UHGV virus genome: UHGV-0033085
Reading direction: 5' to 3' (one strand)
DNA length: 64,000 nt
DNA from: a virus
How positions within the stretch are numbered: the first letter of the stretch is position 1; each line of letters begins with the position of its first letter. Shown here in pieces: positions 31,999-64,000 of the stretch. The notes under the pieces were generated by a model. That model saw nothing but the letters and a program-made list of their open reading frames with translations, was not told the DNA's origin and did no database searches. A program made the position numbers and the translations under genes.

Positions 31999-32520
31999 TT
32001 ATTCTTCGAACAATTTTTCGATAGATTTTGTAGGATAGAACAAAGAACGCTCGTTGTTACCAACCAGCTGGATAAAGTCTAAACTTTTATAAAACGCCTT
32101 GGCTTTGTCATTTAACGCCTCAACGAAAAGTCCATGAATGCCTACAGCAAGAGATGCATTGTACACAACGCGCATTGCATGTGTTACAAGCATTGAGCCA
32201 AATCCTTGACCTTGAAGGGACTTGTCCAAAGCCAGCCTACCCAAAGTAACACTTGGAACATTCCGATAAGGTACCTTCTTTTGCTGGCTTCTTGAAGGTA
32301 AGGACTCCTTTTCAAAGCAGCTACCTGACAAAGTGTAATACCCTAACACTTTTGGTCTGCCTTCTTTCGTGCAGAGCACATAAGCGCGAAGAATTTTTCC
32401 CTCATGCTGCCTTTTTAAGTGGTTGGTTAAAAAGGCATTTAGTGATTCTTCACCGCAATCAAAACCATTCAAATCATAATCTTTCTCTCCAGAGAAAATT
32501 TCTATCTTTATATTATCCAC
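31999..32520 (-). CDS. GNAT-family acetyltransferase toxin (TacT/AtaT-like)
   Basis: GNAT motif LQGQGFGSMLV; GTG start 8 nt after antitoxin stop. Confidence 0.7.
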   Translation of the reverse strand: MDNIKIEIFSGEKDYDLNGFDCGEESLNAFLTNHLKRQHEGKILRAYVLCTKEGRPKVLGYYTLSGSCFEKESLPSRSQQKKVPYRNVPSVTLGRLALDKSLQGQGFGSMLVTHAMRVVYNASLAVGIHGLFVEALNDKAKAFYKSLDFIQLVGNNERSLFYPTKSIEKLFEE

Positions 32521-33115: not shown

Positions 33116-33784
33116 ATGACCAAGATCTTTGTGGTTGGCGGCACAAAGGGCGGGCCTGGCAAATCCACCGTTGCCCAGCAAATTGCCGTTTGCCTGAAAG
33201 TCAAAAAGAAGAAGAAGGTTTATATCACTGATATAGATATTCAGCGCACGACAACGAGCTGGTGTGAAGACCGTCGACAGAACGAATACCTTGAGCTGAT
33301 TCCTTTTGCATACGTTCAGGATGACATCATTAAGCACCTAAAATCGCTTCAGGGTAGAGCTGAGTTTGTAGTGGTAGATGCTGGTGGCTTCGACTCCGAA
33401 ATTCAGCGACAAGCGATGCTGATGGCCGACGTTATCATTATCCCGCTTCGTCCTAAGCGTCGTGATTTGAAATCTCTGCGTGACATCGATCCTATTATCG
33501 ACAATGTTCGCAATGTAAACGATAAAGTGAAGGTCCGCGCGGTCATGAACCAGTGCCCGGCTTTGCCATCACAAGTGTCTCGCATTCTGGCGGCTAAAGA
33601 GATTGTTGAGACGTTTGGAATCGAGTCTGCGCCAGTCAATCTATATAACCGCAACGTCTATGATGATGCGGAAGAGTCTGGTCGTTCTATCTTTGAAATG
33701 ACCGGTAGCGAGCGCGACAAAAAGGCGGAAGCCGAGTTTGAAGAATTTGTAGATTATCTGTTGAGTCTGGAGGAAGAAGAATAA
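33116..33784 (+). CDS. parA: ParA-type partition ATPase
   Basis: Deviant Walker A GGTKGGPGKST; TAATG coupling to downstream gene. Confidence 0.8.
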   Translation: MTKIFVVGGTKGGPGKSTVAQQIAVCLKVKKKKKVYITDIDIQRTTTSWCEDRRQNEYLELIPFAYVQDDIIKHLKSLQGRAEFVVVDAGGFDSEIQRQAMLMADVIIIPLRPKRRDLKSLRDIDPIIDNVRNVNDKVKVRAVMNQCPALPSQVSRILAAKEIVETFGIESAPVNLYNRNVYDDAEESGRSIFEMTGSERDKKAEAEFEEFVDYLLSLEEEE

Positions 33785-50320: not shown

Positions 50321-52684
50321 ATGAAGGCACTGATGGTTCGAACTGACTTCTCACTTGGGGAGTCGGCTCTAAAAGCAGAAAACGCGGTGAAGATTGCCAG
50401 AGAAGCTGGCTACACCGCTGTAATTTCAGCAGATAGCATGAATATTGCGAGCGTTATTCCACTACAACGTGCCGCTGGTGACGACATGGCGGTTATTTGT
50501 GGTGTGAAACTAAACATTGTTGATGATCCCACATACGAGCACCGGGCTAAACTTGCTAAAGAATCTATGAGATGTATGGAATCATTAGAGCGAGGACGTA
50601 ACTACTCGTTTACCGCTCTAATTAAAAATGAGAAAGGATATCGCGACATCTGCGAACTAATGACGGCGGCCAACACACGAGAACAGTTCTACTTTGTACC
50701 GCGTCTCTCGCTCGAACAGTTGGTTTCTACATATGCCAAAGGCAACATCATCCTGCTTACTTCCGACATCGGTAGCGTGTTCCAACGCAACGATTTTGCA
50801 AAAATCATAAGCACACTGATTACAGCGGGTGGAAAAGACAACTTCTATAGTGTGGTTTATCCGCACCCTACCCCATTCTACGACCAGATTAACGTCCGGG
50901 CGATGAAAGTCGCCAGCGCATTGAAAATAGAGCCAGTGGCGTTCTATCCCGCTTATTACGAATCGATCGACGATGCAGACATTAAAGACATTGCGCACAT
51001 GGTTACGAACAACATCAAAATCGACCAGCCGCATCGTCTGCGTATCCCCCACCAGCGAGATAACGCCGTCAATGGTCGCCGCCATCTCCTTGAGGCGCTT
51101 AAAGCCTTCTCCGTTCGCATGGATGTGCCGGTAACAGCTGCAATGGCCTCAACAACGCAGGATACCATTATCGATGCCTGCACATGGCGCTGGCATGAAT
51201 TGCCGCCAGCACTGCCAAAGATGGCAGACGACGAGCCTGCAACGCTGATGAAACTGGCTGTTGCAGGGCTGCGTAAACGTCTTACCACAAAAGAGTTTGG
51301 CTACACACCACCTGCTTCTGAGAACAGGGTTTATGTTGAGCGGCTAAAGTACGAAATGGACACGCTGACTCGCCTGGGATTCTGTGGTTACTTCCTGATG
51401 GTGCGCGATCTGATGAATCATAGTCGTGAAACTGGCATTCCCGTTGGGCCTGGTCGTGGTTCCTCTGCCGGTTCTCTGGTGGCGTGGTGCATAGGCATAA
51501 CCAACGTCGACCCAATCCGTCACGGTCTTCTGTTTGAGCGTTTCATCAACCCTGAGCGTCTCGACTTGCCGGATGCGGACTTGGACTTCAGCCAGGCACG
51601 TCGCCATGAGGTGATCGAGTATCTGAATGAACGCTACGGCGAAGATTACGTTGCAGGCATTCCGAACTTCACCTACCTGGGCGCAGCCTCTGCACTACGT
51701 GATACCGCTCGTATTTATGGTGTGGAGTCCGCAGATATGGCGGTATCAAAAGAGCTGAAGAACGTCGAGGATGATAGCCTTCCATTGGAGGAGCTGCGCG
51801 AACAACTGGCAAGTCTCGACAAATACGCAACAAAATATCCTGATGCATTCAATGCAGCCTGCAAGTTACAAAGCCTTATGCGTGGCTTTGGTAGACATGC
51901 GGCAGGGATGATCGTAGCAGGTGTTCCTCTGACAGAACGTACACCGGTTGAACGCCGTGGTGACGCGCGTTGTATCGCATTTGACAAGCGTTACTGCGAG
52001 GCTATGGGCCTAATTAAGCTGGACGTACTCGGTCTGGCAACTCTCGATTTGCTCGATAGTGCAAAACGCTACATAAAAGAGAACACAGGTGAAGATATCA
52101 ATCTTGATGCCATTTCTCTTGAAGATCGCAAGGTGCTGGATGGTTTTGCTGCAGGGTATACACAGGGCGTATTCCAGCTTGAATCAGGCCCAATGCGCAA
52201 GCTGCTTAAAGATTTAGGTGGTGGAATTGAGCCAATGAGCTTTAAAACGGTCGTCGCTACAACTGCGCTCTTCCGACCTGGCCCGATTCAATCCGGCATG
52301 TTGGACGATTATGTGTCCGTGGCCAAAGGCTTCATGGCCCCACATTCCTTACACCCAATGCTGGACGACATCTCTCGCGACACAAACGGAGTTCTGATTT
52401 ATCAGGAACAGATCATGGCTGCTACGCGAATCTTGGCGGGGTTCTCAATGGCGGAAGCAGACTCGGTCAGGAAAGCGATCGGGAAAAAAGATATGGAGAA
52501 AATGAAATCCATTGGCGGCGACTTCATTAAGCGAGCGGAGGAAGGCTGGGTGACAGTGTCACTGGATGATGGTTCTACGAGAAAAATCCATAAAGCAGCA
52601 CGCCTACTTTGTGCTGATGGTGAGCGTCGCACTTATGCCGAAGCAATGGCAATAAATGCCGACATAACGAGCTTCGATATTTGA
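50321..52684 (+). CDS. dnaE: DNA polymerase III alpha (DnaE-type), N-terminal fragment; last about 45 codons non-homologous
   Basis: PHP-like N-terminus; core motif GPGRGSSAGSLVAWCIGITNVDP, LLFERFINPER, DADLDF; homology ends near 52546. Confidence 0.8.
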   Translation: MKALMVRTDFSLGESALKAENAVKIAREAGYTAVISADSMNIASVIPLQRAAGDDMAVICGVKLNIVDDPTYEHRAKLAKESMRCMESLERGRNYSFTALIKNEKGYRDICELMTAANTREQFYFVPRLSLEQLVSTYAKGNIILLTSDIGSVFQRNDFAKIISTLITAGGKDNFYSVVYPHPTPFYDQINVRAMKVASALKIEPVAFYPAYYESIDDADIKDIAHMVTNNIKIDQPHRLRIPHQRDNAVNGRRHLLEALKAFSVRMDVPVTAAMASTTQDTIIDACTWRWHELPPALPKMADDEPATLMKLAVAGLRKRLTTKEFGYTPPASENRVYVERLKYEMDTLTRLGFCGYFLMVRDLMNHSRETGIPVGPGRGSSAGSLVAWCIGITNVDPIRHGLLFERFINPERLDLPDADLDFSQARRHEVIEYLNERYGEDYVAGIPNFTYLGAASALRDTARIYGVESADMAVSKELKNVEDDSLPLEELREQLASLDKYATKYPDAFNAACKLQSLMRGFGRHAAGMIVAGVPLTERTPVERRGDARCIAFDKRYCEAMGLIKLDVLGLATLDLLDSAKRYIKENTGEDINLDAISLEDRKVLDGFAAGYTQGVFQLESGPMRKLLKDLGGGIEPMSFKTVVATTALFRPGPIQSGMLDDYVSVAKGFMAPHSLHPMLDDISRDTNGVLIYQEQIMAATRILAGFSMAEADSVRKAIGKKDMEKMKSIGGDFIKRAEEGWVTVSLDDGSTRKIHKAARLLCADGERRTYAEAMAINADITSFDI

Positions 52685-52732
52685 GAATTAATTTATAAGA
52701 TAAGAAAACAATTTGTTTAGTGAGTCTTAGAA

Positions 52733-53467
52733 ATGCCGAGTACGAAGTACAAAATCACAGAAGAATGGTTACGTCAGCGTTACATGGTTGACCTGATGAG
52801 AAAAGAAGACATTGCCGCCGAAGCTGGTTGCAGCAAGGCAAATATTGACCGCTTATTAGCCAAATGGGGGATCAGGCGCGGAAGCGCGCGGATCTCCGCT
52901 ACCCCAGCCTGGAATCGTGGCAAAAACAAAAATAATGACGAACGTATGAAGCGTCTCTCCGAAGCCCGGACTGGCACTGGCAACCCTATGTATGGGAAAA
53001 CCTCGTGGAATGCCGGTCTGCGTGCTGATATCGATGAGCGAGTGGCCACCGTTTCGAAAAAGCTAACCGGCAGAACAATCCGCGCGGAGACGAAGGAAAA
53101 GCTGGCGGCTGCCAAACGTGGAAAGATCGGAGAAGAAGCGAACAACTACAAAGGTGGCATCATCGTAAAAACCAACGGCTACATGATGCAGCTGGTTGGT
53201 AACAATGGCGTTTCGCAATACGAATACGTTCATCGATTGATAGCGAAAGAACGTCTCGGTCGGGAGCTACGTGACGATGAACATGTCCACCATATTAACC
53301 GCGATACGATAGATAACGCCCCTGGGAATCTTGTAGCACTTCCAGAAGACGCCCACATTCGCCTGCATAGTGAAATGCGTGAAGAGATATGGAGCTGGGA
53401 GCGCCAACGGAACTGGCTGGCCTCCAATGGGTATGAGTTCGTGAAGATTGATGAGGTGACTGCATGA
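52733..53467 (+). CDS. HNH homing endonuclease (NUMOD-like repeats + HNH)
   Basis: HNH motif HHINRDTIDNAPGNLVALPEDAHIRLH; repeated GKxxWNxG / KRLSEARTG-type motifs. Confidence 0.8.
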   Translation: MPSTKYKITEEWLRQRYMVDLMRKEDIAAEAGCSKANIDRLLAKWGIRRGSARISATPAWNRGKNKNNDERMKRLSEARTGTGNPMYGKTSWNAGLRADIDERVATVSKKLTGRTIRAETKEKLAAAKRGKIGEEANNYKGGIIVKTNGYMMQLVGNNGVSQYEYVHRLIAKERLGRELRDDEHVHHINRDTIDNAPGNLVALPEDAHIRLHSEMREEIWSWERQRNWLASNGYEFVKIDEVTA

Positions 53468-54633
53468 AAATTACCGGTGTTGTCGAAGAGAGCAATGGCC
53501 TGACGCACGAACGAGCCGAAGAAATCTGGAATATGTTTGAGAAATCCGGCGCGTATGCCTTCAACAAATCACACTCTGTTGCTTACTCCTTAATCAGTTA
53601 TCAATCTATGTGGTTGAAAACTCATTATCCCGCGGAGTTCTTCGCTGCTGCTCTCACTATTCTTGGCGAAGATAAACACCAGGGGCTGGTTAAAGATGCG
53701 CTGACCTATGGTATTCGCGTATTGCCACCAGACGTTAACGTGTCATCTAACCGAATCGAGATCCGCACGCTTGAAGATGGCAGCCAGGTGCTGTATGCGC
53801 CCTTCTCTGCTGTGAAAGGGTGTTCTGAGAATGGCTGCCAAGCCATCATGAGAGCGCGAGAAAAAGTTGGCGGCAAATTCGAGTCACTGGCGCAATTCGA
53901 AGAAGCTGTCGAGAAACGTGCCTGTAATAGTCGAGTGCGCGAATCGCTGCAAAAAGTAGGGGCGTTTGCATCCATCGAGCCAGGTAGTCTGCCAGCAACT
54001 GATCCAGAGCGCCTACGCGACCAGGCTGAATTGATGGGAAACCTTGTCATAGACGCAGTTAAAGCCTCACGTCCGTTTGAGATGAACCCCAAACGTTCGG
54101 CTGAGATTAACGTACTCATGACGCGGATGGCGGCTGAAATGGGCTTAGGTGATGAACTAATCCGCCCCAGCATTGGTATTAAGCCGAAAATCATGATCAT
54201 TCTGGACAATGCGAACGGCAATGATGCTCGAACCGGTTACTTTATGGAGAACGGATACGACGATTTTAAGGCCAAGCTGTTGACGGCTGGGGATTTGCGC
54301 ATGGGCGATCTCTATGTCACAGGCGTTTGCAAAAAGGTGAAAGACAAAGAAAAGGACTACACCAAAGACGAGATCGGCCAGTTCACCGACTTTATGCGTG
54401 AAGAGATCAATCTGGTGCGCCCGACCTATGTGCTGACGTGTGGTAGCCGGGCAACGGCATTGTTTAACAACAAAAACAAGCCATCCGATTTGGTCGGCAG
54501 GAAGGAGTATCTTCCAGACCTTGACGTTACTGTCTTTTACGGGTTTAACCCCAACATTCTTTACTTCAGACCTGAAGAGGGAGAACGACTAGAAGCGATA
54601 TTAGCCGACGTAGCAGAAACTATTAAGTCGTGA
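53464..54633 (+). CDS. dnaE: DNA polymerase III alpha (DnaE-type), C-terminal fragment
   Basis: Motif YAFNKSHSVAYSLISYQSMWLKTHYPAEFFAA; own ATG with GAGGTG upstream. Confidence 0.8.
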   Translation: MKITGVVEESNGLTHERAEEIWNMFEKSGAYAFNKSHSVAYSLISYQSMWLKTHYPAEFFAAALTILGEDKHQGLVKDALTYGIRVLPPDVNVSSNRIEIRTLEDGSQVLYAPFSAVKGCSENGCQAIMRAREKVGGKFESLAQFEEAVEKRACNSRVRESLQKVGAFASIEPGSLPATDPERLRDQAELMGNLVIDAVKASRPFEMNPKRSAEINVLMTRMAAEMGLGDELIRPSIGIKPKIMIILDNANGNDARTGYFMENGYDDFKAKLLTAGDLRMGDLYVTGVCKKVKDKEKDYTKDEIGQFTDFMREEINLVRPTYVLTCGSRATALFNNKNKPSDLVGRKEYLPDLDVTVFYGFNPNILYFRPEEGERLEAILADVAETIKS

Positions 54634-56336: not shown

Positions 56337-56352
56337 TCCCATTACGTGACCA

Positions 56353-56383
56353 GTAAGGCGTCTACGGACGCCTTACTTTTTGG
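56353..56383 (+). terminator. rho-independent terminator
   Basis: GTAAGGCGTC-TACG-GACGCCTTAC followed by TTTTTGG. Confidence 0.7.
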
Positions 56384-56396
56384 AAGGAATGTACCG

Positions 56397-57341
56397 GTGA
56401 ATTATCTCTTCGTAGATGGCAATAGCCTGGGTTATTACCACCAACAATCTGACAAATTGCACAACGGCGAAATGGAAGTACAGGCTGCTTTCGGCTTTGT
56501 TAAGAACGTCCGTCGTTATGCCTCCATCCTCCATGCCCGACCTATGATTCTTTGGGATGGATTTAGTGACAAGCGTCGCGACTTTTACCCGGACTACAAA
56601 GCAAATCGCGACGACGATCCTGATATGAAAAAGATGAAGGAAGGCTTTGCTATCCAGAAGCCATACATCCTCAAAATGATGACCGCGCTTGGAGTTACCC
56701 AACTCATTGCAAAAGATGCAGAAGCGGATGATCTGGCCGGGCTGCTGGTAGCCAGCATTGCACCGCAGCCAATCGTTGAACACATCTATCTGTTAACAGG
56801 CGATAGCGACTGGCTTCAGTTAGTTCGCGAAAACGTAAGCTGGGTAAGCCTGCGCGAAGACGCCAAAAACAAGCAGGTTAATTTTGAGCAATTTGCGGAG
56901 CTGACAGGATTCGCTACTCCTCGCGCATTTTTGGAAGCAAAAGCATTACAAGGCGATAAATCGGACAACATTAGCGGTGTTGGTGGCATTGGTGCTGGCG
57001 GTGCGAAAGAGCTGCTGCATGAATGGGGAAGTGTCGCAACGATGGTGCGCGGCATCAACGACGGCTCAATCGTGGTTGACAAAGGACGCCATAAGACCGC
57101 CTTCAACAAACTAGCGAAGAATGCCTTCAACGAGAAAACAGGCTGTCGAATGCTCGAAGCGTTCAAGAGAAACATCACGCTAATGAACCTGATTGAGACG
57201 AAGTTTCCGCCTACCGAAATCGAAACAATCAAAGGCAATCGTGACGTGAAAGCATTCGAGCAACTGTGCTACGAGCTGAATTTCCGTTCGTTCCTTGAAG
57301 ACCTTGAAGTGTTTGTTCTTCCATTCGAAAGGTATTGCTAA
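56397..57341 (+). CDS. 5'-3' exonuclease / flap endonuclease (FEN family)
   Basis: GTG 56397 after GGAAGGA; motifs YLFVDGNSLGYY and AEADDLAG. Confidence 0.65.
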   Translation: MNYLFVDGNSLGYYHQQSDKLHNGEMEVQAAFGFVKNVRRYASILHARPMILWDGFSDKRRDFYPDYKANRDDDPDMKKMKEGFAIQKPYILKMMTALGVTQLIAKDAEADDLAGLLVASIAPQPIVEHIYLLTGDSDWLQLVRENVSWVSLREDAKNKQVNFEQFAELTGFATPRAFLEAKALQGDKSDNISGVGGIGAGGAKELLHEWGSVATMVRGINDGSIVVDKGRHKTAFNKLAKNAFNEKTGCRMLEAFKRNITLMNLIETKFPPTEIETIKGNRDVKAFEQLCYELNFRSFLEDLEVFVLPFERYC

Positions 57342-57607
57342 TGCTTAAATCGATTATTAATGGCGCTACAACCACCCCTGCCCAACTGGCAAAAGAGATT
57401 GTCTTTTATCACGGTGAGTACGCTGTCATCGCACTGCCGTCAATTCTAGGCGCTGCCGGAATGAAAGCGACAGATCGCGAGTTTGGATTAGTCAGCGAGC
57501 AGGTCGTAAAAATCCTCGCTCGTGTATCCAGACTCCTTAACCACGATGCGATTGTATTCGACGAATCCGCCGCTTTAAAACGAATCAACGAAACAAAAGG
57601 AGCCTGA
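57335..57607 (+). CDS. hypothetical protein
   Basis: 90-aa ORF coupled to flanking genes. Confidence 0.3.
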   Translation: MLMLKSIINGATTTPAQLAKEIVFYHGEYAVIALPSILGAAGMKATDREFGLVSEQVVKILARVSRLLNHDAIVFDESAALKRINETKGA

Positions 57608-57609
57608 TC

Positions 57610-58683
57610 ATGGCAAAAGGAAAATCCGCACTGGCACTTGCTCTGAAAAAGAAAATCGGTAGCAACGACGAAATTCAGAAAGTAACTCATTGGATTGACA
57701 CAGGCTTTCCTCCGTTAAACAAAGCGATTTCCGGTCGTTACGATGGCGGTTTCCCATGTGGTCGTATCGTAGAAGTATTCGGGCCACCAAGCGCGGGGAA
57801 AACCTTTTTGGCAACGGCAGCAATGATCTCCGCACAGAAACAAGATGGTCTGGCGGTATTCCTCGATCATGAGAACAGTTTTGACGTTGGCCTGGCTGTA
57901 GCCAATGGTTTGAATGCAGATGAGGATGACGGTCAGTGGGTATACAAGCAGCCTGATACCTTCGAAGACTCTGTAGAGTTGATCGGCACAATTCTTAAAT
58001 TGGTACGTGATGAAGAGCTTATTCCTGAATCAGCACCTATCTGTATCGTGGCTGACTCACTTGCGTCTATGGTTCCGAACTCCAAAGCCGAGAAGTTCGA
58101 AAAGATGGCTGAAGGCACTGCCAAAGACAAAGATCAGCTAAACATGAACGACAATACGGCACTGGCTCGTGCGACAAGTGCGAACTTCCCTACTCTGGCT
58201 TTGTGGGCACGCAAATACAACGCCTGCATCATCTTCTTGAATCAGGTTCGCACAAAAATCGGTGTAATGTTTGGCGACCCTACTACGTCTCCAGGTGGAG
58301 ATTCACCGAAGTTCTACGCTTCTGTACGTATCCGTCTTGGTGCATCGGTGATGAAGGATGGTAAAGAGAAGATCGGCCAGGACGTAGGCGCAGAATGCAT
58401 CAAAAACAAAGTTGCACCACCGTATGGCAAATGCACCTGGAAATTCTACTTCGATCCTACTCGTGGCCTCGACGTTATCGAATCGCTCGTCGAGTACATG
58501 CTGGAAGAAGGATACCTGCCAAAGAACGCCAGCGGGCGAGTTGAAATTGGTGACAAGAAATACACCAAATCGCAGATCGTCGAGATGTATCGGGAGAAGC
58601 CACTGGCTGAAATCATTGCGGCTTTGCAGGCAATCGACGACCGAAGAGCAAAAGACAACCCCACCGAGTCAGTAGAAGAGTAA
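57610..58683 (+). CDS. RecA/UvsX-family recombinase
   Basis: Walker A GPPSAGKT; RecA-like core. Confidence 0.7.
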   Translation: MAKGKSALALALKKKIGSNDEIQKVTHWIDTGFPPLNKAISGRYDGGFPCGRIVEVFGPPSAGKTFLATAAMISAQKQDGLAVFLDHENSFDVGLAVANGLNADEDDGQWVYKQPDTFEDSVELIGTILKLVRDEELIPESAPICIVADSLASMVPNSKAEKFEKMAEGTAKDKDQLNMNDNTALARATSANFPTLALWARKYNACIIFLNQVRTKIGVMFGDPTTSPGGDSPKFYASVRIRLGASVMKDGKEKIGQDVGAECIKNKVAPPYGKCTWKFYFDPTRGLDVIESLVEYMLEEGYLPKNASGRVEIGDKKYTKSQIVEMYREKPLAEIIAALQAIDDRRAKDNPTESVEE

Positions 58684-60877: not shown

Positions 60878-61209
60878 AGGCCATCCCATTCGCGCTGTTG
60901 TTCCTTTCTTCGATCGTTGTGGCCGACACCACTGTTTATCAGTGTGAAATGTCTGTAGCCGACGTTAAGAATGGCGCTCTTACCGACGTCATAAAAGCAC
61001 CATATGGAGCGATGGTCGTAGACAGCGGCGACCAGTTCTATGTTGTGCGTGACGATCGAGTGTTGTCATCCCCATATCTCACAAATCGTAATGGCAAATT
61101 AACCGGCGTCGGAGAAGACCACTTCGTATACAACAAATACAAGGGCTTCTATGGTGTTCACGCTTCTCAGCAAAGCTACCTTTTCGATGACTGCAAGGAG
61201 GTTGGATAA
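60874..61209 (+). CDS. secreted/periplasmic hypothetical protein
   Basis: N-terminal signal peptide MKAIPFALLFLSSIVVA. Confidence 0.4.
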   Translation: MKAIPFALLFLSSIVVADTTVYQCEMSVADVKNGALTDVIKAPYGAMVVDSGDQFYVVRDDRVLSSPYLTNRNGKLTGVGEDHFVYNKYKGFYGVHASQQSYLFDDCKEVG

Positions 61210-61421
61210 TGGCATTAACACTGGCAGGTCTGGAAATCGAGAAAACAAGCGGCTACTGGCGTGCTAAGGGTTTCAAGCAGCCTGGCATTCTTGAGCGTCT
61301 GGAACGTGAAGATGGGTATATCGTCCACCAGCGGCGTGAATGGCGTATGTACGATCCAGAAACAGGAAAACTGACTACAAAAGCCGGAACACTTTGGGGT
61401 CTGTTAAAGAAAATACACTAA
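61209..61421 (+). CDS. hypothetical protein
   Basis: 70-aa ORF. Confidence 0.3.
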   Translation: MALTLAGLEIEKTSGYWRAKGFKQPGILERLEREDGYIVHQRREWRMYDPETGKLTTKAGTLWGLLKKIH

Positions 61422-61466
61422 ATGCAAACTGACTGCGGCACGTTCCGCAGTCATATTTCATAGTCG

Positions 61467-61951
61467 TCACCGCTGACAGCATACACAATCAACTACCGCT
61501 GATAGCATATCGAGAGTCTATCTCACCGCTCACAGCATACTTTACTCGATTTTTTACCGCTGACAGCATACTTAAGACATTGCATGAATAATGTGTACCG
61601 GTATGGGTATAACCAGAACAAAATTACCGCTGGCAGCATACGAAGGTCTGACATATACCATTAATTACCGCTGATAGCATATCCAAACAAAAATTCCTCA
61701 ATAAAACACCGCTGACAGCATACGTTCTATCAGGGAGCAGCAGGCAATAAATGCCTTTCACTACAAGCAATCAGCGCAATAGCAATAGAATGTTAGTGAG
61801 CGCAAACCTATATGGAATGCACTCTTCGAGGTTAGTAACCACTGGGGAGGTATGACAGAGCATTGAGTGGTGATAGATGATTTACCGCCCACAGCATACG
61901 TTCATCTCACTATACCGCTGGTAGCATACATTTCACCGCTGACAGCATATC
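61467..61951. repeat. iteron array downstream of repA (about 10 copies of YACCGCTGACAGCATAC; incA-like)
   Basis: Direct repeats at about 61467, 61493, 61521, 61554, 61624, 61674, 61707, 61882, 61912, 61932. Confidence 0.8.
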
Positions 61952-63044
61952 AAAGCAGTTTGAGACTATTGGAAAGGATCTCAATCATCTTGATATTTTC
62001 AGGCGTCAAATTCTGCGAAAGTTCGGTTATCTTGTTGATAATGTTCTGTTTGGCATCAATTTCCCCAGCTTTCTCATCTAGTTTTTTGGGTTCGATGTCT
62101 TCAGGTTTTGGCGGTGCGACTTTGAGTTTTGGATTGCGGCTGTGAATCTGGATATAGATCGACCGCCCTCGCTTAATCTCGCTGTATTCGAGATAACCCA
62201 AATCTTGGAGAGCTTTTAAGCCGTTGCGTATAGTCTGATTCTGCGAGCTGACATTCCTGCTACTCAAATTGAGTCGCGCACGCAATCGAGCAAGCGATAC
62301 CGGCGCAGGCTTGGTTGGAAGACTTTCGATGAAGGTGTACAGAGCCTGTGCTGTTTCTTTGCGTGGTAGCTTATTGATAACCTTTAACTGCAAAAGAACC
62401 TTATGGTCAAAGCGATATAGTTCGGCCAGCTTCGGTTCTGCATAGAACACCACCGTATCTTTCTGCTCGTTGTAGTCCACGCTATTGATGAGGTGCACCA
62501 TCAGAAGCGAGATCTTGTTAGAGCCGTCGACGTTCTTTTCTTCATACGTTCTCTGGAAAGACAGAGTTGTACGCATGATCTTCAAAAGACTGTTTGTAAG
62601 CCGGTCGCGGAGTGTTTTGCGGATCTGTGACGATGGATAGCCACAAAACTTCGCAAATTTCGTGATGCTTAACTCGACACGACCGTTAGGTTCGCCGTAT
62701 TCTGCCAGCGAACGCACAACGCCCACCCACGTTTTGAAATCATGATCCATGTCGAGACGAGGACCGGTTATCTTGATATCGGAATAGCCTTCAGAACGGG
62801 CTACTTCGAGCTGAACAAGCTCCTTTGAAGCATCGATCTCATTTGGCTTGTTACGCTTGCTGTATTTTGTCCCCTTGAGCGTGGGCACGAACAATCCCAG
62901 CCGCATCAACGCAATTGGTTGGACTGTATTGTTGCTATTAGGGACAAGTTCCCCTGTGTACAATTCAAGGGAACCTTCTTCAAAGTTGTCGATGTTATCT
63001 TCTACTTCTTTGTTATTTTTACCTTTTTTATTTTTTGTGGACAT
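61950..63044 (-). CDS. repA: RepA plasmid replication initiator (P1 RepA-like)
   Basis: Segments NSNNTVQPIALMRLG and DIKITGPRLDMDHDFKTW match P1 RepA from memory; ATG 63044 with AAGGTG upstream; listed N-extension lies over iterons. Confidence 0.75.
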   Translation of the reverse strand: MSTKNKKGKNNKEVEDNIDNFEEGSLELYTGELVPNSNNTVQPIALMRLGLFVPTLKGTKYSKRNKPNEIDASKELVQLEVARSEGYSDIKITGPRLDMDHDFKTWVGVVRSLAEYGEPNGRVELSITKFAKFCGYPSSQIRKTLRDRLTNSLLKIMRTTLSFQRTYEEKNVDGSNKISLLMVHLINSVDYNEQKDTVVFYAEPKLAELYRFDHKVLLQLKVINKLPRKETAQALYTFIESLPTKPAPVSLARLRARLNLSSRNVSSQNQTIRNGLKALQDLGYLEYSEIKRGRSIYIQIHSRNPKLKVAPPKPEDIEPKKLDEKAGEIDAKQNIINKITELSQNLTPENIKMIEILSNSLKLL

Positions 63045-63063
63045 GTGGACACCTTTGTCATTC

Positions 63064-63168
63064 AACCGCTGACAGCATACTTGATTTGCCGCTGACAGAA
63101 TACCAAAAACAGTTGGCAGCATACGGTGAACCGCTGACAGACTATCAATTACCGCTGACAGCATACAT
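63064..63168. repeat. iteron array upstream of repA (4-5 copies; incC/origin-like)
   Basis: ACCGCTGACAGCATAC-type repeats at 63064, 63087, 63129, 63149 plus partial at 63112. Confidence 0.75.
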
Positions 63169-63206
63169 GAACATGACTTCAGACCAGTCGTGGCGCGGCT
63201 TACAGC

Positions 63207-63280
63207 GATCGGGGATCTTATTTGATCTATATAAGGATCTATCTATGGATCTCTTTATTAGGATCTATCCTGTGGATATG
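63207..63280. other. origin-like region: GATC cluster plus DnaA-box-like site
   Basis: Six GATC within 60 bp (63207-63266) and TGTGGATAT (8/9 match to DnaA box complement) at 63271. Confidence 0.55.
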
Positions 63281-63365
63281 TGAATAATTAAAACAGGCAT
63301 TTACTACCTTCGGCGCACCTGGTGGGTTATCGTTGCCTCGGCTAACAATCACAGAAAAATGACAT

Positions 63366-63965
63366 ATGGATCTAAAACGCACGCGCTGGGTTCGTCGTCT
63401 TGAAGACGGCTCCTACACTATCGAATCAAATTCCAACCTGAATAAGCAGAAGTTGCTTTGTGACATCTGCGGTATAGCGGCGAAGTGCCCGATCTACGAA
63501 ACCAGAATTAAACTTGATAAGGCTGGTGTGAATTTTCATTTAAACAGTTGCATCAGGTACGTTCCATTACTCGCATTTCGTAAACCGATCATCGGATTGG
63601 ATGCTCCCTACTTCAACACACTCCGTTCAGGTGTGACGTGGCGAGATCGTTTATCACCAGACAAGCTGATTTGCCTCGTATCCGCAGACACAGGGAAAAT
63701 CATCCGTTTTGGGAAAGTAGACAAGGTTTACTCAGGCCCAGTAGACGAAATGTTGCGGAAACACAGCCGGTTTAATCATCTCTGTATGGGTGGTGAGAAA
63801 ATCGAGAAGGTAGAAGAAGTGATCCGCAAATCCTACGGACACTTTCTGACCAAAGATAGCCTGCTCACCGCAATCTACATCAGACATGTAAAACGTGAGT
63901 TCGACCTCGAATACCACAGCGAAGAAGAGCCTGGCTTTTCGCAGATCGTATACAGAAGGTCGTAA
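63366..63965 (+). CDS. hypothetical protein
   Basis: 199-aa ORF adjacent to origin. Confidence 0.35.
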   Translation: MDLKRTRWVRRLEDGSYTIESNSNLNKQKLLCDICGIAAKCPIYETRIKLDKAGVNFHLNSCIRYVPLLAFRKPIIGLDAPYFNTLRSGVTWRDRLSPDKLICLVSADTGKIIRFGKVDKVYSGPVDEMLRKHSRFNHLCMGGEKIEKVEEVIRKSYGHFLTKDSLLTAIYIRHVKREFDLEYHSEEEPGFSQIVYRRS

Positions 63966-64000
63966 TGGATTACCGGATTGGGATCACTGGTGCTCAGGGC

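Follow-up and report, generated by a model that had tools for sequence, protein, structure and literature searches.

A probable P1/RepFIB-family iteron replicon in an SSU5-like Escherichia coli phage-plasmid

The virus genome UHGV-0033085 carries, close to one end of the 64,000-nt stretch that we analyzed (the window), a minus-strand repA gene with short direct repeats (iterons) arrayed on both sides and a run of GATC sites beyond one of the arrays. We conclude, with a probability of about 0.9, that this locus serves an SSU5-like E. coli phage-plasmid as its plasmid-prophage replicon and belongs to the P1 RepA/RepFIB iteron family. The case is built on the sequence elements themselves, on their non-randomness, on the order and distances in which they occur, on the fact that RepA and the origin core are homologous to those of phage P1, and on the recurrence of the same architecture across relatives. 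A first-pass annotation, made from the sequence alone, had likened the locus to the oriR/incC/incA organization of P1; every element of that plan is present, the order is the same, the distances are nearly equal, and RepA and the core are homologous as well. The replicon is thus real, ordinary, and already known in kind, being catalogued and placed in one of the best-studied plasmid replicon families. Its parts are as follows (positions are those of the window).

61469–61950, minus strand: control (incA-like) array, 10 direct iterons in the same orientation as the origin iterons
61469-84, 61495-510, 61525-40, 61556-71 and 61626-41, plus-strand coordinates: cores of the five distal control iterons
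61667-82, 61708-23, 61884-99, 61914-29 and 61935-50, plus-strand coordinates: cores of the five repA-proximal control iterons
61950–63044, minus strand: repA, predicted iteron-binding replication initiator, 364 amino acids (aa)
63050–63056, minus strand: Shine-Dalgarno-like AAAGGTG, 5 nt before the repA ATG (63044), read from the sequence
63065–63166, minus strand: origin (incC-like) array, five direct iterons (63065-80, 63088-103, 63109-24, 63130-45 and 63151-66)
63167–63206, minus strand: G+C-rich spacer between the iterons and the GATC region, reading ...GCTGTAAGCCGCGCCACGACTGGTCTGAAG... on the repA strand
63207–63265, no strand assigned: A+T-rich run of AGATCC-type heptamers with six GATC (Dam) sites
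63271–63287, minus strand: two overlapping DnaA boxes, TTATTCACA (63279-63287) and ATATCCACA (63271-63279)

Direct iteron arrays flank repA

We scanned the whole window with the 15-mer ACCGCTGACAGCATA, allowing up to three mismatches, and found 16 matches where 1.5 would be expected, a count that none of 100 shuffled sequences reached. Fifteen of these matches sit at the repA locus, all on the plus strand and in a single orientation. By column information content the repeat has a core of 16 nt (on the repA strand, RTATGCTGTCAGCGGT) with a weak A-rich stretch after it, so that the length of roughly 17 bp given by the first-pass annotation is fair; the 4–5 upstream and about 10 downstream copies that it described in one orientation come to five and ten in the pattern count, all direct. 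The five origin iterons are spaced 23, 21, 21, and 21 bp from centre to centre, or about two helical turns. Spacing in the control array is irregular, at 21–41 bp with two wider intervals, of 70 and 176 bp (measured between iteron starts), and the 482 bp of this array are broken by iteron-free stretches of 55 bp and 160 bp. The control iteron nearest repA (61935-50) shares one base with the repA stop codon.

Even at more than 98% identity, relatives differ in the number of control iterons, with 10 copies in the window, 12 in plasmid NZ_CP027358, and nine in Escherichia phage PhiR41_1. The two extra iterons of NZ_CP027358 lie within a 51-bp segment adjoining repA; PhiR41_1 has those two and is without three distal copies, owing to an 87-bp deletion. 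Deletions in the control array start and stop inside iterons (in the window and in the relatives L001:6070-6615 and L002:5070-5530), and this variation in length is the pattern that unequal recombination between direct repeats would produce. Across a wider set of 30 IMG/VR contigs that we gathered by iteron sequence, whose RepA proteins are 85–93% identical, we found up to five upstream iterons (in some contigs three or four within three mismatches) and 8–12 downstream iterons, always direct, together with the GATC run.

One further iteron-like 16-mer, GTATTCTGCCAGCGAA, lies inverted within the repA coding sequence (62696-62711) and differs from the consensus at four positions; with an expectation of about 8% within the gene, it is probably there by chance.

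The origin core is homologous to P1 oriR

Beyond the origin iterons, GATC sites start at 63207, 63214, 63224, 63236, 63248, and 63262. These six sites in 59 bp (the first-pass annotation had counted six in 60 bp) form the densest cluster in the window, where the runner-up has three sites per 80 bp, and an equal density arose in 3 of 2000 random placements. Local A+T content is 64–68%, and by analogy with P1 we presume this run to be the unwinding region and the target of Dam methylation and SeqA sequestration. The DnaA-box-like sequence seen at first pass, written TGTGGATAT, is present at 63271-63279, and to it we add a second, overlapping box at 63279-63287 that the first pass had not listed: TGTGAATAA, or TTATTCACA on the minus strand, which fits TTATNCACA exactly. 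Because exact TTATNCACA matches occur twice in the whole window, a lone DnaA box is weak evidence; what counts is a position homologous to that of the P1 DnaA site.

We took the features of P1 from its annotated GenBank record, which gives nine incA iterons (the last ending at the final base of repA), repA, five incC iterons enclosing the promoter PrepA, five Dam sites starting 40 bp past the last iteron, and then an 18-bp tandem DnaA site. The window has the same order of parts: tandem DnaA boxes, GATC heptamers, G+C-rich spacer, five phased iterons, repA, and a second array that abuts the repA stop codon, with 9 iterons in P1 and 10 in the window. Spacings agree within 1–2 bp. The origin iterons lie 22, 21, 21, and 21 bp apart in P1, against the 23, 21, 21, and 21 bp of the window; the last origin iteron is separated from the first GATC by about 40 bp in P1 and about 42 bp in the window; and 9 bp separate the last GATC from the DnaA boxes in both.

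The likeness extends to the letters themselves. Over the 121 nt of iteron-free origin core, the window reaches 67% identity with P1, 66% with JK004, 71% with RCS47, 67% with SSU5, and 77% with Klebsiella phage pJN2-26. MAFFT pairs the DnaA boxes, AGATCC heptamers, GATCCC-GATCG, and G+C-rich spacer of the window with those of P1 (blocks that can also be aligned by eye), and within the spacer the block GCCGCGCCACG..CTGG is kept in P1, pJN2-26, and RCS47. The window heptamers align one to one with the P1 Dam sites; the window has six GATC sites to the five of P1 because AGATCC stands where P1 has a degenerate AGGTCC. Judged from these alignments, the window origin and P1 oriR are related by homology and not only by analogy.

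The two loci also differ. Their iterons are distinct (GATGTGTGCTGGAGGGA in P1, GTATGCTGTCAGCGGT in the window). All 10 control iterons of the window are direct, whereas six of the nine in P1 are inverted (five to six in P1 and JK004), and the control array, with its two iteron-free gaps, is 482 bp long against 285 bp in P1. P1 parA begins about 270 bp from incA; in the window, no parA-parB-parS operon lies downstream of the control array, where convergent small genes of unknown function are found instead, and the ParA-like gene is about 28 kb away. That gene, which encodes a ParA/MinD-type ATPase (33116-33784), and a GNAT-type toxin gene (31999-32520) bear out the ParA locus and the toxin-antitoxin context that had been cited from elsewhere in the window.

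RepA is a predicted winged-helix initiator

The minus-strand repA assigned to 61950-63044 at first pass holds up as a 364-aa open reading frame (ORF) with the Shine-Dalgarno-like AAAGGTG before its ATG, a motif kept as AAAGGTA in pJN2-26. Kinship with iteron-plasmid initiators, on which the first-pass interpretation depended, is found at several levels: RepA is 43.5% identical to P1 and P7 RepA over residues 32-309 (tblastn, E 3e-64), it carries a Rep3_N domain, and its predicted fold matches those of RepE, pi, and RctB. The family alignment with P1 RepA has about 80 invariant columns. The Pfam Rep3_N (WH1, the first winged-helix domain) match has an E value of 3.9e-9 and 37.4 bits against a gathering cut-off of 22.4. 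All six aligned family members match Rep3_N and four of the six match Rep3_C, which was not detected in the window RepA at E≤0.01; no NCBIfam model matches either the window RepA or P1 RepA.

An AlphaFold model built with 36 homologues divides the protein into a Lys-rich N-terminus (residues 1-32, modeled with low confidence), a conserved WH1-WH2 core (about 33-309) with a predicted local distance difference test score (pLDDT) of about 80–92, a low-confidence linker (309-329), and two confident helices (329-363). Searched against the PDB with Foldseek, the model matched RctB domains 2-3 (5.9e-8), RepE (1e-4), and RepE54 (1.9e-3), along with a WH1 Rep domain and TrfA and, more weakly, pi and pPS10 RepA; RctB domains 2-3 and F RepE share the WH1-WH2 fold with the model at a Foldseek probability of 1.00. 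Sequence searches of solved structures, with RepA or with the six-member profile, returned nothing relevant, so the relation to RepE and pi is seen by fold only. F RepE, R6K pi, pPS10 RepA, and Vibrio RctB bind iterons as this family does, but their origin layouts differ.

P1 RepA is shorter, at 286 aa against 364; the window protein has about 30 extra N-terminal residues and a C-terminal two-helix tail. As this tail (consensus LTxExxxLLEKL) is common to the window RepA, SSU5 RepA, and RepFIB-type homologues in our alignment, it is P1 that stands out as truncated, and phage-plasmids are not alone in having the tail.

The replicon belongs to a widespread phage-plasmid

In PLSDB, at least 118 plasmids match the 2-kb region over at least 80% of its length, at 95–99.5% identity. 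Nearly all are about 110 kb, non-mobilizable, and from E. coli, Shigella, or Salmonella, and one comes from E. coli O104:H4 2009EL-2050. Escherichia phage PhiR41_1, with E. coli K-12 MG1655 as its recorded host, is 98.3% identical over the region. The best-matching plasmid encodes phage tail and terminase genes, dnaE, a DnaB-like helicase, primase, ligase, nucleotide-metabolism genes, and a tyrosine recombinase. By sequence, then, we take the window to be part of an SSU5-like E. coli phage-plasmid of about 110 kb. No other plasmid initiator is annotated in the near-identical plasmid, about 4 kb of that plasmid excepted. Together with the many plasmid matches and the match to PhiR41_1, this speaks for maintenance of the element. 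NZ_CP027358 also encodes an N6-adenine methyltransferase (L041:32443-33036, outside the window) that could bear on methylation of the origin GATC sites; P1, too, encodes a Dam-type enzyme.

By tblastn, RepA is 99.5–99.7% identical to the copies on E. coli phage-plasmids (99.7% to that of the reference plasmid), 85–87% to those of Klebsiella pKPHS1-like phage-plasmids, and 48% to SSU5 and Cyrano RepA. Homologues occur on at least 5000 PLSDB plasmids, mostly at 47–50% identity, and two such plasmids that we checked, pSEN and an avian pathogenic E. coli (APEC) plasmid whose RepA proteins are 47–49% identical, are typed IncFIB. The RepFIB proteins, at 47–50% identity, are slightly closer to the window RepA than P1 RepA is, and "P1/RepFIB family" is therefore the more exact label. 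RepFIB loci have one DnaA box and five GATC sites, with iterons on either side of repA, but those downstream run in both orientations, unlike the all-direct array of the window, and the plasmids that carry these loci are conjugative or virulence plasmids rather than phages.

P1, JK004, SSU5, pJN2-26, and RepFIB plasmids all follow the same layout (DnaA box, GATC run, iterons upstream of repA, repA itself, and iterons downstream of it), each with its own iteron: GATGTGTGCTGGAGGGA in P1, TATCCACTGTAGTGA in SSU5, the ATAAGCTGTA type in RepFIB, and GTATGCTGTCAGCGGT in the window and the Klebsiella pKPHS1-type elements. RepA and iterons have, on this comparison, co-diverged around a conserved host-factor core, as expected of a working replicon family. 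The SSU5 and pKPHS1-type elements share the neighbourhood of the window as well: a divergent gene of 214 aa on the origin side, and past the control array a gene of 70 aa labelled "Cre-associated". In the Klebsiella pKPHS1-like elements the iteron is identical to that of the window, RepA is 85% identical, and 8–9 control iterons occupy 247–268 bp. SSU5 has another iteron, a control array of mixed orientation, and a duplicated origin core: it appears to hold two tandem cores (DnaA box and GATC run, then iterons) upstream of repA (L004:780-850 and 1155-1300), where the window has one.

PlasmidFinder types most SSU5-supergroup phage-plasmids as IncFIB (PMC7969092; bioRxiv 10.1101/2025.09.12.675607). 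The Klebsiella relatives have been named "IncpKPHS1" and described as having four iterons downstream of repA and no recognised domain (PMC6735626); this description, the only published one that we found for that replicon, is less complete than the anatomy seen here. The related SSU5-group phage-plasmid Cyrano (pLF82), which is distinct from the window, is present at about 5.5 copies per chromosome (PMC9928086).

A P1-like mechanism and the points against it

For every biochemical step, as for promoter position, copy number, and the helicase used (host or phage-encoded), our model is carried over from P1 by homology. RepA monomers would bind the five origin iterons, phased two helical turns apart, and RepA on these iterons, together with DnaA at the tandem boxes, would open the A+T-rich GATC heptamers. 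The GATC sites would tie initiation to Dam methylation, with SeqA sequestering hemimethylated sites after firing. RepA would repress its own synthesis through a promoter inside the origin iterons, while the ten downstream iterons would titrate RepA and handcuff the origin iterons, giving low copy number and incompatibility. In P1 these steps are established knowledge from the Chattoraj, Abeles, and Austin laboratories. By analogy, we infer low copy number and Dam dependence for the window replicon, and we presume that its repA promoter likewise lies within the origin iterons.

At its other end, the unit is closed by a terminator-like hairpin.

61430–61453, both strands: bidirectional terminator-like hairpin with a 9-bp stem and six G-C pairs, found by a terminator scan and also as an inverted-repeat match

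The hairpin separates a convergent 70-aa gene (61209-61421, plus strand) from the repA/iteron unit, and repA transcripts probably cross the control array and end there. Rfam returned no RNA family at E≤1 over 61200-63450, which indicates that no known antisense or leader RNA is encoded at the locus.

Several observations weigh against reading the locus as a P1-like replicon. When the repA strand was scanned with the standard sigma-70 consensus, no promoter was found among the origin iterons or upstream of them; relaxing the scan brought up a single weak candidate, the extended -10 TGgTATTCT (63097-63105), which falls in the fourth iteron. The leader of repA is short (about 20 nt, against about 70 nt in P1), and where P1 has a good DnaA box between incC and repA, the window offers only TGTCCACA. 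The all-direct, interrupted control array may mean that the geometry of control differs from that of P1. Since a DnaB-like helicase, a primase, and Pol III alpha are encoded on the element itself, its needs for host factors may differ. MOB-suite (via PLSDB) places the nearest, 99.5%-identical plasmid in rep_cluster_488 and not in IncFIB. Finally, we found no paper that dissects this particular origin, although its anatomy can be read straight off the homology, and no experiment on this replicon in the literature; autonomous replication, RepA binding, dependence on Dam, SeqA, and DnaA, and copy control are extrapolated from P1.

A conserved YACTAAC island lies within the control array

The larger iteron-free gap of the control array holds a conserved element that is not an iteron.

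61790–61848, minus strand: conserved non-iteron island, reading on the repA strand CCCCAGTGGTTACTAACC, 28 nt, AGGTTTGCGCTCACTAAC

Lying within the 160-bp gap, the island has two YACTAAC boxes at a distance of 46 nt; together they make up an inverted repeat, though an imperfect one. Its 16-mer CCAGTGGTYACTAACC is exact in 27 of the 30 relatives, and SSU5, whose iterons are unrelated, has it with two mismatches; the spacer around it has diverged among relatives. We did not find the island in P1-like and RepFIB loci, and in the window it was found once only, with no repeat near parA. The palindrome GGTTANTAACC is found twice more in the rest of the element, in no clear pattern. Since lineages that share the island have different iterons, it is unlikely to be a RepA site.

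We considered a conserved RNA hairpin and set it aside: RNAalifold gives a 13-pair stem with a single compensatory change and no net covariation support (the covariation term is positive). The island has no Rfam match and no promoter, and by eye it does not match the IHF, Fis, LexA, CRP, or XerCD consensus.

The island is the only part of the locus that P1 homology leaves unexplained. It could be a cis site for a phage or host factor other than RepA, modulating handcuffing or processing of the repA 3' end and so linking copy number to the state of the phage, an idea that we put forward tentatively and think improbable. The natural polymorphism of 9–12 control iterons could tune copy number in the same system.

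Alternative explanations

We wondered whether the replicon could work and yet be controlled in a way materially unlike P1, with a factor at the YACTAAC island, or the phage helicase or primase, modulating initiation and perhaps coupling copy number to the lysis-lysogeny choice. The island invites this reading, being kept across lineages with differing iterons while its flanks diverge and being absent from P1-like and RepFIB loci, and so does the element's possession of its own replisome genes and an N6-adenine methyltransferase. However, no candidate protein that binds the island can be named, the motif has no promoter, no match in Rfam, and weak covariation, and in the Klebsiella relatives the island lies just outside the array and so may belong to the neighbouring region. 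We regard such altered control as unlikely. A more radical proposal is that the replicon is a fossil, inactive or dispensable, in an element kept through another origin and its own replisome. The full set of phage replication genes in the element (DnaB-like helicase, primase, Pol III alpha) would permit this, and no strong repA promoter was found. Yet repA is intact and 99.7% identical to the reference plasmid copy, the region recurs in at least 118 near-identical plasmids, and the five origin iterons, GATC run, and DnaA boxes are kept in lineages with only 85% RepA identity. Nor is a second plasmid-type initiator annotated in the near-identical plasmid (outside the roughly 4 kb mentioned above), and the co-divergence of iterons and RepA across SSU5, P1, and the window is the signature of a working protein-site pair. 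A fossil is therefore very improbable.

The remaining alternative is that the databases are right: that the gene is a 404-aa "RepB" starting at ATG 63164 with the upstream repeats as coding sequence, or that the repeats are attL and attR sites. PGAP, the NCBI annotation pipeline, gives 1215 nt (404 aa) in the near-identical plasmid, in a "RepB family" model whose start codon falls within the outermost origin iteron and which crosses all five of them; the frame is indeed open from 63164, and a 404-aa protein represents a cluster of 667 members. But the extension consists of the five iterons only, and with a period of 21 bp (7 codons) and an ATG in each, these would leave the frame open in any case. 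The homology with RepA of P1 and SSU5 starts at about residue 30 of the 364-aa form, AAAGGTG precedes ATG 63044, relatives have been called at 364–366 aa as well as at 393–407 aa, and the homologous repeats of P1 are experimentally defined, non-coding RepA sites with a promoter. As for att sites, record MZ779062 (Klebsiella phage pJN2-26) does label two repeats attR and attL, yet in the window fifteen phased copies flank a Rep gene, and the element is maintained as a circular plasmid. We accordingly rejected the iterons as att sites or coding repeats on their phasing, the point at which homology starts, the Shine-Dalgarno sequence, and the P1 precedent, and give this alternative almost no credence. 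The preferred reading remains that of a working, P1/RepFIB-type iteron replicon.

Annotation errors in related records

These comparisons bear on public annotations. From the sequence features just listed, the widely propagated 404-aa "RepB" model is almost certainly about 40 codons too long, the 364-aa form from 63044 being better supported. The repeats annotated attR and attL in MZ779062, at L005:1378-1397 and 2648-2667, are RepA iterons, and those labels are wrong. Also wrong is the label "replication helicase" that the P1 RepA family bears in the RefSeq records of P1, P7, and SSU5 and in PHROG 775, as the protein is a winged-helix initiator with no helicase domain.

Other features of the window

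Three further observations concern other genes of the element. The dnaE gene (Pol III alpha) is split here into an ORF at 50321-52684 (787 aa; PHP, NTPase, and finger domains) and another at 53464-54633 (389 aa; HHH_6), with a 244-aa HNH_3 and NUMOD3 homing-endonuclease ORF (52733-53467) in between. In NZ_CP027358, which is 99.5% identical, dnaE is a single, uninterrupted gene of 3519 nt; Rfam gave no intron match across the split gene (50321-54633). Two ORFs of the window (56346-57341 and 57610-58683) correspond to what in relatives is one 779-aa protein (L001:945-3284), labelled "LAGLIDADG family homing endonuclease" or "RecA-like protein"; in the window this gene (56346-58683) may be disrupted or may bear an intein. 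Next to the origin, the divergent gene at 63366-63965 (199 aa) resembles its 214-aa counterpart in NZ_CP027358 only up to about nt 63930, so that the last stretch (about 63930-64000) looks like a mosaic junction just before the window ends.

Implications

Our analysis leaves the understanding of how iteron replicons function unchanged. What it does is to fix this stretch as the plasmid-mode origin and initiator of a widespread, non-conjugative phage-plasmid of about 110 kb found in E. coli, Shigella, and Salmonella. Because its iterons differ from those of P1, we would not expect cross-incompatibility between the two; by contrast, the iteron shared between the E. coli and the Klebsiella pKPHS1-type elements predicts that these would be mutually incompatible.

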